From Nitrososphaerales archaeon (lineage in GTDB: Archaea; Thermoproteota; Nitrososphaeria; Nitrososphaerales; JACPRH01): a stretch of DNA of 64,000 nucleotides. Positions 56,677 to 64,000 of the stretch are shown in pieces; positions within the stretch are counted from its first letter, which is position 1; each line of letters starts with the position of its first letter. Both the position numbers and the translations under genes were made by a program. Location of the stretch: contig JASMAB010000001.1 of the NCBI GenBank assembly GCA_030754585.1, forward strand, positions 6,523 through 70,522, in the 5' to 3' direction. The notes beneath the pieces were generated by a model that did not search any database, was not told where the DNA came from, and saw nothing but the letters and a program-made list of their open reading frames with translations.

Positions 56677-58077
56677 ATGCAGATATCAATAGATAAGCTT
56701 CAAAAAATACTCGAAAAAACAATTCATTCTAGCTATGCAGAAGCAAGGTATCAGCGTAGAGTCAGAAACGAAATAGTGGTAGGTAACGGAGAAGTAGAAG
56801 AAGCAAAATCCATCCGAATTGAAGGAGTAGGTTTTAGAGTTTTATTAAATGGAGCCTGGGGTTTCAGCAGTACGAATTCAGCATTATCCGAATCAATGGT
56901 TGATGCAATAGATGATGCTGTGAAGATGGCAAAGATATCTGCAACTGCCCAGAAGAAAAAATCTAGATTAGTAGAGACAAAACTAGCGAATGGTATTTTC
57001 AAACCCCCAATCAATGATTCACTAGAAGATCATAGCTTGGAGGAGAAAATGACGCTGGTAAGAAAAACCGAGTTGGGTACAAGAGGATATTTTGACACCG
57101 TGAAATCTGCATCATGCAGCTACAGAGAAATAATTGACGAGAAAATCATTGTGACTACAGATGGTGCATCTGTTGAAATATTTAGTTCGAAACCTGAATT
57201 CAGGATAACAGCTGTTGCAGTAAGAAATGGAGACAGAGTTAGTGCAACAGAAACAGCAGGTGTAACTGGGGGGTGGAGAGATTTATTTGAAAAACGAAGT
57301 GCAGAAGAAATGTCTCTGAAAGCAGCTGAGATAGCCAAGAAGCTCCTTGACGCTAAGCATCCAAAGGGTGAACGTTCAAAAGTAATACTGGATTCTGGGA
57401 TGGTTGGATTAATTGCACATGAAGCAGTAGGACACACTGTTGAAGCAGACTTCGTTCTATCAGGTTCTATTGTAAAAGGAAAAATTGGTGAAAAGGTTGC
57501 AAGTGATCTAGTGACACTTGTTGACAGTGGACTCTCAGATATTGTTGGAGGGGCTGCTGGAACTATTCTTGTGGATGATGAAGGAGTATCTGCCGGTAAA
57601 ACAGTGGTAATTAAAGAGGGTATTTTAGAATCTTATCTTCACAATAGGGAAACCGCGGCAGAGTTCGATGTTGAACCCACTGGCAATGCTCGGGCTTTTG
57701 AATATTCAGATGAACCATTAATCAGAATGAGAAACACCTACATCGAGCCGGGTGATTATGAATTAGATGAGATGATTAAAGAGATTGATCATGGATATCT
57801 CCTAAAAGGGCCAAGAAGTGGTCAAGCCGATGCTAATGGTGAGTTCATGTTTGGAGCTCAGGAAGCATATCTTATTGAGAATGGAAAAATTAAGGAACTT
57901 CTGAAAGGAGTAACTGTTAGTGGCAGAGCTCTTGATGTTCTCCAAACTGTCGATGCTCTTGGAAAAGAATTCTCATATGATATTGGTGCAGGTTACTGTG
58001 GGAAAAAACAACTTGCAAAGGTTGATGGAGGAGGCCCATACCTAAGGTGTGAATCATTAATAGGAGGAATTCAATAA
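56677..58077 (+). CDS. tldD: TldD-family metalloprotease
   Basis: 466 aa. It has the HExxxH motif (AHEAVGHTVEAD) and the C-terminal GxC motif (GAGYCGK). Confidence 0.9.
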   Translation: MQISIDKLQKILEKTIHSSYAEARYQRRVRNEIVVGNGEVEEAKSIRIEGVGFRVLLNGAWGFSSTNSALSESMVDAIDDAVKMAKISATAQKKKSRLVETKLANGIFKPPINDSLEDHSLEEKMTLVRKTELGTRGYFDTVKSASCSYREIIDEKIIVTTDGASVEIFSSKPEFRITAVAVRNGDRVSATETAGVTGGWRDLFEKRSAEEMSLKAAEIAKKLLDAKHPKGERSKVILDSGMVGLIAHEAVGHTVEADFVLSGSIVKGKIGEKVASDLVTLVDSGLSDIVGGAAGTILVDDEGVSAGKTVVIKEGILESYLHNRETAAEFDVEPTGNARAFEYSDEPLIRMRNTYIEPGDYELDEMIKEIDHGYLLKGPRSGQADANGEFMFGAQEAYLIENGKIKELLKGVTVSGRALDVLQTVDALGKEFSYDIGAGYCGKKQLAKVDGGGPYLRCESLIGGIQ

Positions 58078-59427
58078 TTGATGATACCTGAAAATGAACT
58101 TGTCGAATCAAGCAGATTTGCAGTTAATACTGCTATTAAAAATGGGGCAGATAGCGCTGAGGCATATAGTGTTTCAACAGTTGAAACCGAAGCATCAATT
58201 GAACAAAATGATGTGAATCTCGGTAAGTTTCACCAAGGATCAGGGATAGGAATAAGGGTCCTAAAAAATGGAGCTCTTGGTTTTTCCTCAGTAAATACAT
58301 TAAATCAAGAAGAAATTATTGAATCTGTAGATACATCCATTAAGATCGCTTCTAGGGGTTCGTTTGATCAATACAATATTCTTCCAACCACGAAAGTTTC
58401 ACAAAAAATATCAGGTATTTATGATAGAGAAGCACAAGATTTCAAATCAGAAGATTCAGTTAAGAATGCTGTTGAGATGCTGAAAACTGCAAGAAGTTAT
58501 GATAATAGGGTAACGGTTGACAGTGGAGCATTCAATAATTCACTAAATTCAATCGCAATAGTGAATTCTAATGGTGTAGAATGTGTAGAAACTATCAGTA
58601 ACTTCACGTGGTATGTTATGGGAATGGCAATTGATGGAAAAGAGGTTTCTAGTTTTGATTTTCAATTTGGTGGGAGCCACCATTTGAAAGATATAGCAGT
58701 AGAGGGCACAGCAAGAAATTTCGCTGAAAATGTGGTGAAATCTCTCCACTCAAAGAAGTGCCAGCCATTCAAAGGAACACTCATCTTGAGCCCACATGCA
58801 GTTGCTGAACTTATTGTACCAACATTTGTAAATTCTATTAATTCGAATAATGTTCAGAAAGGACGCTCCAGTTTTGCTGGGAAAATAGGAAAAGAAATTG
58901 CTTGTAAGGAATTGACAATAACGGATGATGCAACTTGGTCTGAGGGATTGTCTGCTTCCAGTTTTGATCGTGAAGGGGTTCCACATAAGAAATTAACCAT
59001 TATCAATGAAGGCGTTCTAAAATCGTATTTATACAACACCTACACTGCTTGCCGTGATAAAGTAAAAAGCACCGGTCATGCATCTGGAGATGAAGAGTCT
59101 TCACCTGGTGTTGGTTCAACTAATGTTATCTTCAAAAAGGGAAAATTAAATTTTGATGATATCCTAAGTGAAGTTAAGAAAGGAATTTTCGTTACTAGAT
59201 TTTCGGGGAATGTTAATCCTGTTAGTGGTGATTTTTCAGGAGTAGTAAAAGGTGGTCACTTGATAATTAGTGGGGAAAAGATTCATCCGTTAAGGGAGAC
59301 CCTTATTGCAGGAAATATTTTCGAGTCATTACATAAAATTTCAGGTATTTCAAAGGATAGGGAGAAAATATTCAATATCCTTGCACCATACATTAGGGTA
59401 GAAGGCGTTTCAGTTACCAGCGGTTGA
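58078..59427 (+). CDS. pmbA: PmbA/TldE-family protein (TldD partner)
   Basis: 449 aa TldD paralogue lacking HExxxH. It abuts the tldD stop. The ATG at 58081 is likely. Confidence 0.85.
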   Translation: MMIPENELVESSRFAVNTAIKNGADSAEAYSVSTVETEASIEQNDVNLGKFHQGSGIGIRVLKNGALGFSSVNTLNQEEIIESVDTSIKIASRGSFDQYNILPTTKVSQKISGIYDREAQDFKSEDSVKNAVEMLKTARSYDNRVTVDSGAFNNSLNSIAIVNSNGVECVETISNFTWYVMGMAIDGKEVSSFDFQFGGSHHLKDIAVEGTARNFAENVVKSLHSKKCQPFKGTLILSPHAVAELIVPTFVNSINSNNVQKGRSSFAGKIGKEIACKELTITDDATWSEGLSASSFDREGVPHKKLTIINEGVLKSYLYNTYTACRDKVKSTGHASGDEESSPGVGSTNVIFKKGKLNFDDILSEVKKGIFVTRFSGNVNPVSGDFSGVVKGGHLIISGEKIHPLRETLIAGNIFESLHKISGISKDREKIFNILAPYIRVEGVSVTSG

Positions 59428-59601: not shown

Positions 59602-59694
59602 GGGCCGGTAGTTCAGTGGTAGAAATAGTCAAAAAACTGATACAATATCTGCCTCGCACGCGGAAGGTCGGGGGTTCAAATCCCCCCCGGTCCA
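59602..59694 (+). tRNA. tRNA-Ala(CGC) with a 21-nt intron in the D-arm (non-canonical position)
   Basis: The fold is GGGCCGG TA GTTC AGTGGTA GAA[21-nt insert]T A TCTGC CTCGCAC GCGGA AGGTC GGGGG TTCAAAT CCCCC CCGGTCC A. The G3:U70 Ala identity pair is present. Confidence 0.8.
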
Positions 59695-59780
59695 CTTCAT
59701 TATTGAGCATAACATCTCCAAAAAAATATTTTATCCAAACTAATAAAATGCATTTTGGAACAATAATTCCGTAGTAATGT

Positions 59781-61461: not shown

Positions 61462-62487
61462 GTGGTTCCACCAGTTTTGAATAAGCCCAGAATATATATT
61501 ACACGTGAGATACCCGCGAAAGGATTAGAACTGCTATCAAGATGCTGTGATATCACAATGCATCGTGGGAAGGAGCCGCCGAGTCGGGAAGATATACAGA
61601 TTAACATTCAAGGGAAAGATGGATTGCTTTGTATGCTCACGGACAAGATTGACTCCGAAATTATCAAAACTTCTGACAAATTGAAAGTTATTTCATCATT
61701 TAATGTTGGAGTAGATCATATTGACACCATCGAAGCAACTAAAAGGGGCATCTATGTCACGTATACACCTGGAGTACTAACAAATGCAACTGCGGATTTG
61801 GCATTTGCTCTTATGATGTCAGCTGCACGACGGATAGCAGAGGGGGATAGAAATGTCAGAAATGGTAGTTGGAGAGGGGGATGGGCTCCCAATATGCTTC
61901 TTGGAGAAGGAGTATACGGTAAAACTCTGGGAATTATAGGATTAGGGAGAATAGGCACTGCGTTAGCTGAAAGGGCTTCAGGTTTCAAAATGAAAATTGT
62001 GTATTATAACCGAAATCGGTTACCTAACAAAGAGAAGAAACTCAATCTGGAATATAGGTATCTCGAAGATCTTCTAAAAGAGAGTGATTTCATCTCATTA
62101 CATGTTCCTCTTACAGATGAAACTCATCACCTAATCGACAGTCAGAAGTTAAAGAAAATGAAAAGAAATGCAATTCTGGTCAACACAGCCAGAGGCCAGA
62201 TTGTGGATGAAGATGATTTGGCTGATGCATTAGAGGGGGGTTGGATATCAGGAGCAGGTATTGACGTTTTTTCATCAGAACCGCTTCCTGCAGATAACCG
62301 TCTATCTCAGCTAAAGAATGTAGTGTTGACCCCACATATAGGCAGTGCAACTTATCACACAAGAAACTTAATGTGTGAAATTTCAGCTATGAATTTGCTC
62401 GGAGTATTGAAAGGAGAGAATCCTCATTATCTCTTCAACATTGAAGTGATGAAGGTAAGGTCCTTAGATTCAATAAAGATGATCTAG
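61462..62487 (+). CDS. D-isomer-specific 2-hydroxyacid dehydrogenase (glyoxylate/hydroxypyruvate reductase-like)
   Basis: 341 aa. Motifs GIIGLGRIGTALAERA, NTARG and TPHIGSAT. GTG start. Confidence 0.9.
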   Translation: MVPPVLNKPRIYITREIPAKGLELLSRCCDITMHRGKEPPSREDIQINIQGKDGLLCMLTDKIDSEIIKTSDKLKVISSFNVGVDHIDTIEATKRGIYVTYTPGVLTNATADLAFALMMSAARRIAEGDRNVRNGSWRGGWAPNMLLGEGVYGKTLGIIGLGRIGTALAERASGFKMKIVYYNRNRLPNKEKKLNLEYRYLEDLLKESDFISLHVPLTDETHHLIDSQKLKKMKRNAILVNTARGQIVDEDDLADALEGGWISGAGIDVFSSEPLPADNRLSQLKNVVLTPHIGSATYHTRNLMCEISAMNLLGVLKGENPHYLFNIEVMKVRSLDSIKMI

Positions 62488-64000
62488 TGATCTCGCTCTT
62501 CTTTCTCATATATTTTAACTAATGTTTGTAAGGATTTCCCAAAATATTTCAAGAATATTTTCTCGTCATAAGTTTCATCTATCAATGCCTTGGATAACTC
62601 TCTAATGATCTCAGGATGGAGTTTTTCGAGGAACATCAAAAAATGAGCAGATGTTTGAAAAGCACCTAACGCCTTGCCTTCCTCAAAATGAGCTTTACTT
62701 CCAAGAAATGTTCCCTTAGCATCCCTCTGGAATCCCAGATTATCTCTAACAAAATCTGCGATTCCTTCAATCAGCCAAGATGTGTAACTATCGTATCTAG
62801 GTGCCCATAGTATTGCATGATCAATTTCGTGAACAATCGCACCATCATCTGCATCTCGGCTTCCATATACTTCTGCTATTTTATCGAAATGATCAAGGTT
62901 CAGGAATATAGTCTTCCCTTCAGTAGCTGCAGGCCATTTACGATTACGGGTGAGAATAACATTAAGAACTTGCTCTGGATTTCTCCCTGTATGTATTGAT
63001 CTCACCTTGGGTATGGTATTTTCAGCTAAAGAAATAACGTGCATTGCATATTCTTTTTCTGATAGAAAATTTGAGTAATCAACTTTACAATTTTTTCCAA
63101 TTAATATCGCTTCTTGATACTCTAAAGCGTTTGGTTTACCTCTGAGTTTTATCATAACTTCCTCTTTAGTTAACCCAGCAGCTATACTTAGATAATCAAA
63201 AAAGTCCTTACCACCGACAACTTTTGTCCCTTTTTCCCTTACTGCATCAACATATTCCTTGTAATCGTCAATTAGTTTTTGAAAACCCTGATCTGGAATA
63301 ACTATCTTCCCGAATTTCTCATCCACCGCGATGTCGATCTTACCGGAACCCTTCTTTGGGTGAATTCCGCCAACTAAACCAGCCAAACCACTTTTCATCT
63401 CAATCTTCCCAGTCATACAGACATCTGGGCTTAGGGATATATTCCAGATAGCAGACGCGATTGAAACTGCGATTGCTAAACCTGCAGATGGCCCCCAAAG
63501 CTTGAGATCCTCCCTATTAGATCCTTCTGTGGGTGATATTATGTGAACATCTATATCATAATTGTTTATGTTCTGGTGGTACCCTCTAAGAAATTCTACT
63601 GCAATTTTTGCACTTTCCTTTACAGATTCCGTTACCGTTCCCAAGATAAGTAGGTTTTCGCTTCTTCCAGACCGTGGAAAAATGTTAGATTCAACTATTA
63701 TTATTAACCCGCGTCGTTCATCCTCACTTTCCGCAGTGGCTAATCCATAGACTTTCCCTATCTCAGGTCCTTTACCTCTGTAGATCCTTTGCATCTCTTT
63801 CAGTTCTTCAAAGTCCTCACTTTTCACTGCCAGTTCAAAAGCCCTTTCTAAATGATGTAAAGTCAATGGGTATGACGCTGAATCGTGATATGCTGCAGCT
63901 ACTCTTTGGTACAGAGTTTCTATTTTTACTTTTTGAGTTTTGGCCAGATTCTTAAGGTAGACAAGCTGCTCTCCGTAATTCTTCCTGATTGAACTGATTT
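62484..64000 (-). CDS. fusion protein: Lon-type S16 protease domain + BSP-like (HExxH) peptidase domain; N-terminus outside window
   Basis: The frame stays open upstream of the listed TTG (63866) to the window edge. The Lon_C motifs are GKVYGLA, WGPSAGLAIAVSIASA (Ser) and GGIHPKK (Lys). The C-terminal half has VHEIDHAILW and WLIEGIADFVRDNLG. Confidence 0.75.
   Translation of the reverse strand, partial: ISSIRKNYGEQLVYLKNLAKTQKVKIETLYQRVAAAYHDSASYPLTLHHLERAFELAVKSEDFEELKEMQRIYRGKGPEIGKVYGLATAESEDERRGLIIIVESNIFPRSGRSENLLILGTVTESVKESAKIAVEFLRGYHQNINNYDIDVHIISPTEGSNREDLKLWGPSAGLAIAVSIASAIWNISLSPDVCMTGKIEMKSGLAGLVGGIHPKKGSGKIDIAVDEKFGKIVIPDQGFQKLIDDYKEYVDAVREKGTKVVGGKDFFDYLSIAAGLTKEEVMIKLRGKPNALEYQEAILIGKNCKVDYSNFLSEKEYAMHVISLAENTIPKVRSIHTGRNPEQVLNVILTRNRKWPAATEGKTIFLNLDHFDKIAEVYGSRDADDGAIVHEIDHAILWAPRYDSYTSWLIEGIADFVRDNLGFQRDAKGTFLGSKAHFEEGKALGAFQTSAHFLMFLEKLHPEIIRELSKALIDETYDEKIFLKYFGKSLQTLVKIYEKEERDH

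Follow-up and report, generated by a model that had tools for sequence, protein, structure and literature searches.

To our knowledge, the known ATP-dependent proteases (Lon, FtsH, ClpXP, HslUV and the proteasome) each employ one catalytic chemistry, and their products are finished by separate peptidases. Archaeal LonB (MEROPS S16), for instance, carries a single Lon-type AAA+ module with two transmembrane helices and a Ser-Lys protease in one chain, and FtsH combines a classical-clade AAA module with an HExxH zinc domain (M41) and a membrane anchor. Here we report on a chromosomal gene at the end of a 64,000-nucleotide stretch of a Nitrososphaerales archaeon genome (assembly GCA_030754585.1, contig JASMAB010000001.1, positions 6,523 to 70,522 of the forward strand; hereafter the window), whose product joins two AAA modules, a Lon-type serine protease domain (Lon_C) and a C-terminal domain of the basic secretory protein (BSP) family in a single chain. 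No second peptidase was among the Lon_C architectures surveyed in 2008 (PMC2605481), and nothing relevant to a Lon-BSP fusion or a tandem-AAA-Lon family was found in the literature we searched. The sequences are public, but they are named only as AAA ATPases, and the combined architecture is not described.

Among other described systems, LonA starts with an N-terminal LON substrate-binding domain (PF02190), and CDC48/p97 (TIGR01243) consists of an N-domain and two active AAA modules. A functional analogy, and only that, is offered by Cdc48/p97 together with the zincins Wss1 and SPRTN, where a tandem-AAA unfoldase works with a small zincin. The same holds for the tricorn factors F1-F3, TET and thimet oligopeptidase, metallopeptidases that trim protease products; in both cases the partners are separate proteins. 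The BSP/PR-17 family comprises plant PRp27, WCI-5 and HvPR-17 as well as bacterial homologues. Its plant members are small secreted proteins, and one of them, PRp27, binds a hydroxamate metalloprotease probe only with an intact HExxH motif, which shows metal binding through this motif (PMC9322406).

A reading frame with two peptidase modules

The window holds the 3' part of the gene, with the following features (residue numbers are those of the translated fragment unless stated otherwise):

62484..64000, minus strand: 3' part of the AAA-AAA-Lon_C-BSP gene (504 codons plus stop out of 1120)
63780..63998, minus strand: helical segment leading from the second AAA module (D2) to the protease, residues 1-73 (model helices at 2-22, 26-35, 47-58 and 61-73)
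63264..63773, minus strand: Lon-type (S16) proteolytic domain, residues 76-245 (Pfam, PDB sequence matches, Foldseek)
63486..63488, minus strand: codon for Ser171 (Ser787 in full-length numbering), predicted to be the nucleophile within WGPSAG
63339..63341, minus strand: codon for Lys220 (Lys836 in full-length numbering), predicted to be the general base within GSGKID
63129..63263, minus strand: C-terminal extension of the protease module, residues 246-290 (alignment; model helices and a strand at 247-286)
63108..63140, minus strand: short variable linker between the peptidase modules, differing in length and sequence among orthologues
62487..63107, minus strand: BSP (PF04450) gluzincin-like domain, residues 298-504 (Pfam, AlphaFold, Foldseek)
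62817..62831, minus strand: HEIDH motif, predicted to be zinc-binding and catalytic (H390, E391, H394; read from the sequence)
62754..62768, minus strand: EGIAD motif with E411, the predicted third zinc ligand, and D415 (conservation)
outside the window, residues 122-190 and 414-475 of the full-length protein P0285: altered ATPase motifs of the BSP-associated clade

Translation of 62484-63998 yielded 504 codons in a frame that is open as far as the window edge and closes with a TAG at 62486..62484; roughly 616 initial codons fall outside the window. In agreement with an earlier note on this DNA, which had described a double-protease fusion from the letters alone, there is no stop upstream of the TTG at 63866. 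This TTG appears in the list of open reading frames (ORFs) because the ORF tool requires a start codon, and we rejected it as the true start, as the frame runs on upstream and orthologues align across it. All seven motifs quoted in that note (GKVYGLA, DIDVHIISP, WGPSAGLAIAVSIASA, MTGKIE, GGIHPKK, VHEIDHAILW and WLIEGIADFVRDNLG) were found in the translation. The 504 amino acids are identical, with 0 mismatches, to the C-terminus of P0285 (GenBank MDP7657649.1, 1120 amino acids), which goes by the name 'AAA family ATPase [Nitrososphaerales archaeon]' at NCBI and 'SpoVK/Ycf46/Vps4 family AAA+-type ATPase' at JGI. Besides, contig L008, 99% identical to the window, contains the whole gene in a 1126-codon form.

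On the window fragment, Lon_C (PF05362) matched residues 76-240 (E=4.5e-14; 52.9 bits against a cut-off of 21.1) and BSP (PF04450) residues 315-497 (E=6e-16; 59.3 bits against a cut-off of 23.8). As profile matches, the two lie far beyond chance, and their occurrence above the Pfam cut-offs in one frame supports the proposed single polypeptide with a serine and a metallo-peptidase module.

As for the protease half, its closest solved relatives are the archaeal LonB proteins of Thermococcus onnurineus (3k1j) and Archaeoglobus fulgidus (1z0w), matched at E 1e-10 to 4e-9 among PDB sequences. An AlphaFold model of the 504-residue fragment reached a predicted local distance difference test (pLDDT) score of 91.6, and its Lon half aligned with Lon P-domains in Foldseek (E about 1e-12; template-modelling (TM) score about 0.8, normalised to the target); at the level of the model, the Lon fold is thereby confirmed. 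NCBIfam profiles matched only the Lon part of the fragment, with LonB scoring best and far under its cut-off. Neither Ser171 in GPSAG, aligned to the catalytic serine of LonB, nor Lys220 in 'GSGKIDIA', which HMMER pairs with the catalytic lysine (in 'QKIEAA') of A. fulgidus LonB, varies among the 17 family members compared, whether fused or unfused. Of the landmarks listed in the earlier note, the motifs and the nucleophile serine held up, whereas the general-base lysine had been placed five residues too early: K215 and K216 of 'HPKK' vary, being arginine in P0002 and in Bathyarchaeota relatives, and both this conservation pattern and the HMMER alignment to LonB led us to discard the lysine of 'GGIHPKK' and to take K220 instead. 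It follows from the invariance and alignment of Lys220 that the family has an insertion of 4-5 residues between the GG turn and the catalytic lysine. Judged from these alignments, the Ser171-Lys220 dyad is intact as a predicted catalytic signature. Both the helical segment preceding the protease domain and the extension following it are features of the wider family: residues 1-73 align with unfused relatives (P0002, P0003 and others of about 900 amino acids), and residues 246-290 occur also in relatives without BSP (alignment columns ~1040-1095).

The C-terminal half had been assigned to the BSP family on account of an HExxH and an EGIADYVR-type motif, and the domain scan, lack of support from which the earlier note had named as a refutation, bears the assignment out. 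Orthologues and full-length P0285 likewise scored 50-58 bits, above the gathering score. Five residues, H390, E391, H394, E411 and D415, show no variation among 58 BSP relatives; they are the HExxH...E...D residues shared with the plant and bacterial BSP/PR-17 proteins. HEIDH followed by EGIADFVR gives the signature HExxH-x16-ExxxD, a spacing that corresponds to the gluzincin pattern (clan MA). A structure prediction, also proposed in the earlier note, was run on the BSP domain alone and gave a pLDDT of 96.9 and a predicted TM score of 0.92. Its nearest solved folds, matched weakly, were gluzincin peptidases, namely M1 enzymes (LTA4H, ERAP1, APN), lugdulysin and M60-like peptidases. No close solved structure was found for BSP by sequence or profile search of PDB sequences, the Foldseek matches being weak, and a marginal match between the BSP profile and Wss1p (E=0.014) was not significant.

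The earlier note had named a sequencing frameshift at the junction as a way in which two genes could have been joined artificially. Comparison with many contigs upheld the junction, the linkers of fused forms differing by in-frame indels only. A scan of one genome per species returned the same continuous gene in two other Nitrososphaerales metagenome-assembled genomes (L004, 80% identical and 1120 amino acids long; L005, 59% identical). Moreover, a search with full-length P0005 delivered seven clusters (at 90% identity) whose products each combine AAA, Lon_C and BSP (1120-1142 amino acids, 67-100% identical to P0005) and whose members are drawn from NCBI, JGI, ENA and Logan assemblies. Altogether, the continuous fused frame was seen in many independent contigs at identities from 58% to 100%, and the orthologues in L004, L005, L008, L009 and L017 all keep it. 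Where the linker lies, the pLDDT of the model dips to 68. The fully syntenic L008 differs from the window, at 99% DNA identity, by scattered substitutions and one 18-nucleotide in-frame indel within the gene (EFHSHS, at 63122/63123), which sets the 1120-residue form of the window apart from the 1126-residue form in L008 and L001, the latter likewise a 99%-identical contig; indels among the fused linkers are multiples of three. In contig L001, the first 85 bases (L001:2-85) show an in-frame stop and an A-to-E change in the GPSAG region, most likely end-of-contig errors.

A naturally split version exists in three assemblies (GCA_023481325.1, GCA_023379805.1 and Logan SRR10267473), which share a 90%-identity cluster with the fused P0159. 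There (L014, L015, L016), a Lon gene for 920-923 amino acids ends in '...AAG CCT AAG TGA', and a separate BSP ORF of 216 amino acids starts downstream at a GTG that overlaps the TGA (GTGA; L014:8700-8800). Relative to the fused L017 (5590-5900), the split form has a 7-nucleotide deletion in the linker, and its stop and GTG restart map to 63108..63140 of the window. The separately encoded BSP shares 86% identity with its fused counterpart and reaches 67.8 bits with the BSP profile. Both parts therefore stay together, whether in a single chain or not, as is classically seen where two modules are coupled in function and probably also physically. The split form also shows that the Lon-BSP join is evolutionarily labile.

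The ATPase half and described protein families

What lies N-terminal of the peptidase modules had been left open in the earlier note, which called for extending the contig. The full-length P0285 provided the answer in the form of two PF00004 AAA modules ahead of Lon_C and BSP. Its 1120 residues are thus arranged as a short N-terminal region, the first AAA module (D1), D2, a helical linker, the Lon protease, a flexible linker and BSP. By NCBIfam, the two AAA modules are of the classical Cdc48/FtsH type and not of the Lon-specific AAA+ type. A hydropathy scan detected no transmembrane helix, its sole maximum being the buried helix that carries the catalytic serine. The Walker motifs of D2 are intact, while D1 is degenerate throughout the BSP-associated clade, split lineage included, having lost the threonine of Walker A (PGWGKK) and the glutamate of Walker B (ID(Q/N)). 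The best NCBIfam match to the ATPase half was CDC48, with residues 63-634 aligned to its D1+D2 part at 183 bits against a cut-off of 802.65; as even this best match falls far under the cut-off, no curated family claims the protein.

Measured against the described families, the protein shares with archaeal LonB the protease fold, the Ser-Lys dyad and the combination of ATPase and protease in one chain, but it has two classical Cdc48-like AAA modules in place of one Lon-type AAA+ module and lacks detectable transmembrane helices, for which reason a membrane-anchored LonB-type protein was rejected. Further differences from LonB are the LonA-like GPSAG nucleophile motif, the insertion before the general base and the extra C-terminal zinc domain, and the LonB model TIGR00764 gave 54.7 bits against a cut-off of 516.6. 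The LON domain of LonA has no Pfam match in the full-length proteins, and neither has the CDC48_N domain. In contrast to CDC48/p97, the present protein therefore has no N-domain, and its D1 is degenerate. FtsH resembles it in joining a classical-clade AAA module to an HExxH zinc domain, and D2 reaches 128 bits on the ATPase part of the FtsH model; yet there is no match to M41 (PF01434) and no detected transmembrane segment, AAA modules number two, and a Lon serine protease stands between ATPase and zinc domain. Judged by these defining features, as predicted from sequence, the protein belongs to none of LonA, LonB, CDC48 and FtsH. Lon-like-Ms of M. smithii was also considered as a member of the same family and was rejected by its description, with one ATPase domain and a tyrosine at the position of the serine (PMC4864567). 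Unlike the small secreted BSP members of plants, the present BSP is the C-terminal domain of a 1120-residue protein with no detected transmembrane helix.

Relatives and gene neighbourhood

The protein is part of a wider, apparently undescribed family of AAA-AAA-Lon_C proteins of about 900 amino acids, which have no BSP domain and are homologous to it over their entire common length, at 35-55% identity. Among the members are the partial calls P0002 and P0003, which over the Lon half agree with the window fragment at 55-56% identity; P0161-P0163 show 37-45% identity to P0005, and a Bathyarchaeota clade about 35%. The unfused relatives end after the Lon module, come from other archaea including Bathyarchaeota and are annotated as 'AAA family ATPase' or 'SpoVK/Ycf46/Vps4 family'; no BSP gene was found near them at the loci examined. 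One of them, P0162 (GCA_016186485.1, L012), is filed under 'Candidatus Nealsonbacteria'; because its contig also has RuvA and a Mur ligase, it may be a genuine bacterial copy acquired via transfer. Among the fused proteins, the near-identical MDP6575280.1 is filed as 'Candidatus Peribacteraceae bacterium', probably a binning error.

From the side of the BSP half, an exhaustive HMMER search of 1.84 billion representatives yielded only 317 that match this divergent version of the domain at E<=1e-3. When the 150 best of them were inspected, a Lon_C-like region was present only in the cluster of this protein, so that, as far as these 150 go, the fusion is confined to one Nitrososphaerales clade. 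The nearest free-standing BSPs (P0006, with 58% identity, P0008, P0009 and P0011) are small and show no obvious signal peptide at the N-terminus, and the P0006 locus is without a Lon gene. P0006 and P0009 carry an unrelated N-terminal domain of about 98 amino acids with no Pfam match (L007:1343-2278), and BSP has therefore combined here with more than one partner module.

The earlier note had also suggested analysing the neighbourhood upstream of 64000. Looking at related loci, we found a conserved membrane-protein gene directly upstream of the Lon gene, outside the window, at these positions:

L004:5635-6960, upstream membrane-protein gene
L005:96-1367, upstream membrane-protein gene
L009:8840-9994, upstream membrane-protein gene
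L012:3615-4994, upstream membrane-protein gene
L002:7467-8486, upstream membrane-protein gene
L008:3-377, upstream membrane-protein gene

Its products (~340-460 amino acids) are homologous in all six loci, which represent fused and unfused lineages, and the gap to the Lon gene is about 7 nucleotides in several of them; most examined members of the ~900-residue family share this gene with the fused lineage. An N-terminal hydrophobic segment is followed by a middle region of about 330 amino acids, presumably an ectodomain, and by two C-terminal transmembrane helices, between which lies a conserved loop (YDKxKRGxL..KQWxP). No Pfam or PADLOC match was obtained for this protein. At the same position, Bathyarchaeota encode a 256-residue membrane protein of similar topology and no BLAST similarity.

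On its other side, the Lon-BSP gene is met within the window by a convergent 2-hydroxyacid dehydrogenase gene (61462..62487, plus strand), the two overlapping at their stops in the palindrome CTAG (62484-62487), an arrangement repeated in L004 and L008. Two Lrp/AsnC regulators and a TldD/PmbA pair follow. The flanking genes are housekeeping genes whose order is partly conserved across loci, and the setting is a housekeeping one and not an island. The tandem TldD/PmbA genes (56677-59427, plus strand), another metalloprotease system, lie ~3 kb from the Lon-BSP gene, and the same is true in L008. Between the PmbA and Lrp/AsnC genes, ARAGORN placed a tRNA-like gene of 94 nucleotides with an undetermined four-base 'anticodon' (59602-59695, plus strand), which may be an intron-containing archaeal tRNA.

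A proposed function and its alternatives

Within our overall best explanation, the function we favour is that of an ATP-dependent protease with a tethered second peptidase, a proposal drawn from sequences of uncultured organisms and from predicted structure, for which we consider the case evenly poised. The protein would assemble as a Lon/Cdc48-like hexamer, in which D2 would spend ATP on feeding polypeptides into the Ser-Lys chamber, and the flexibly tethered zinc domains would either trim the emerging peptides or cut the same substrates a second time in a different manner. Two proteolytic steps, which other cells assign to an ATP-dependent protease and to separate peptidases acting after it, would thereby be performed by one machine. 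The membrane protein encoded upstream possibly recruits this machine to the membrane or is its client. Taken further, the protein might represent an unrecognised class of self-compartmentalising proteases, with a Cdc48-like tandem-AAA ring, a Lon chamber and a gluzincin ring in one homo-oligomer that unfolds, cuts and trims; we put this forward tentatively, as a possibility that we ourselves regard with some doubt.

Several points weigh against the proposed two-step protease. In the BSP-associated clade, the pore loops are non-canonical (WLMG in D1, KEVG in D2) when compared with those of archaeal Cdc48 (KFYG, KWVG), and since the D1 Walker motifs are degenerate as well, processive unfolding is not assured. 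In contrast, relatives without BSP retain intact D1 Walker A and B motifs and an aromatic D1 pore loop, and several also keep KWVG in D2. The changes in D1 and the pore loops hence correlate, in the sequences compared, with the possession of BSP, and the altered rings could indicate weak unfolding power together with a preference for unstructured substrates. The hexamer, the position of BSP relative to the chamber and the substrates are predictions. In fold, the BSP model resembles solved peptidases only weakly (E 1e-3 to 1e-1; TM 0.4-0.58). In addition, proteolysis has never been shown for any BSP protein, 'peptidase' being a family name, neither PRp27 nor its family is listed in MEROPS, and PRp27 exerts its immune function independently of HExxH (PMC9322406).

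The last of these points would also fit a different role, in which BSP binds metal but serves recognition or regulation, for instance by holding substrate termini or degrons or by gating the Lon chamber, and the Ser-Lys site does all the cleavage. The non-canonical pore loops, which suggest that substrate engagement may need an extra binding module, point in the same direction, as does a conserved strand motif (PAAT-x-G) lacking a conserved acidic residue of the kind found in GxMEN of M1 aminopeptidases. Yet the catalytic glutamate of HExxH, which mere zinc binding would not need, is invariant in 58 of 58 relatives, the two histidines, the distal glutamate and the aspartate are equally fixed, and the fold neighbours are all active peptidases, so that we regard such a purely non-catalytic role as unlikely, if worth serious attention. 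Less probable still is a neutral fusion, in which BSP would be an independent housekeeping peptidase joined by loss of a stop codon, the two halves remaining uncoupled and acting on different targets. While the 7-nucleotide indel interconverts fused and split forms and the closest free-standing homologue, P0006, sits in a Lon-less locus, BSP is fused to or overlaps this Lon gene in lineages down to 58% identity, the GTGA overlap is typical of co-translated partners, and the correlated D1 and pore-loop changes of the BSP-associated clade are absent from BSP-less relatives.

Two further explanations concern the gene as such. An anti-virus or conflict system, made up of an AAA ATPase and a protease effector after the manner of Iet/IteA or the Lon-like BrxL of BREX, could account for the matches of D2 to the PADLOC profiles IetA and TRIP13 and to NCBIfam IteA, and for the toxin-antitoxin genes close by in L009. 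These matches are, however, confined to the generic AAA domain and far under their cut-offs (62 bits against 510 for IteA), the neighbours are housekeeping genes in partly conserved order in all lineages examined, and the partner membrane protein has no match to a defence family; we rejected membership in a defence system on the generic nature of the PADLOC and NCBIfam matches and consider it very improbable. An artefact of sequencing or assembly, by which a frameshift would have joined two genes, is scarcely credible. It might draw on the genuine split form in three assemblies and on the in-frame stop near the end of the low-coverage contig L001, but it was rejected on the many independent contigs, as the same frame recurs in assemblies from four sources at 58% to 100% identity and the linker indels of the fused forms are all multiples of three.

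With a tandem-AAA motor coupled to both serine and zinc peptidases, such a chain would be a natural test case for the channelling of proteolytic steps, and it would lend the BSP/PR-17 family, long uncharacterised and home to plant defence proteins, a testable biochemical role; the naturally split lineage provides a ready-made experimental control. It would also point to a Lon-like family of archaea, so far undescribed, whose members in Nitrososphaerales, Bathyarchaeota and elsewhere have a membrane partner. If the self-compartmentalising reading is true, the protein would be the first ATP-dependent protease in nature to unite two mechanistically different catalytic types in a single chain, and its BSP-less AAA-AAA-Lon_C relatives in other archaea, Bathyarchaeota among them, would constitute a fourth, undescribed Lon subfamily with a dedicated membrane partner. 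The BSP/PR-17 family would, furthermore, gain its first biochemical function.

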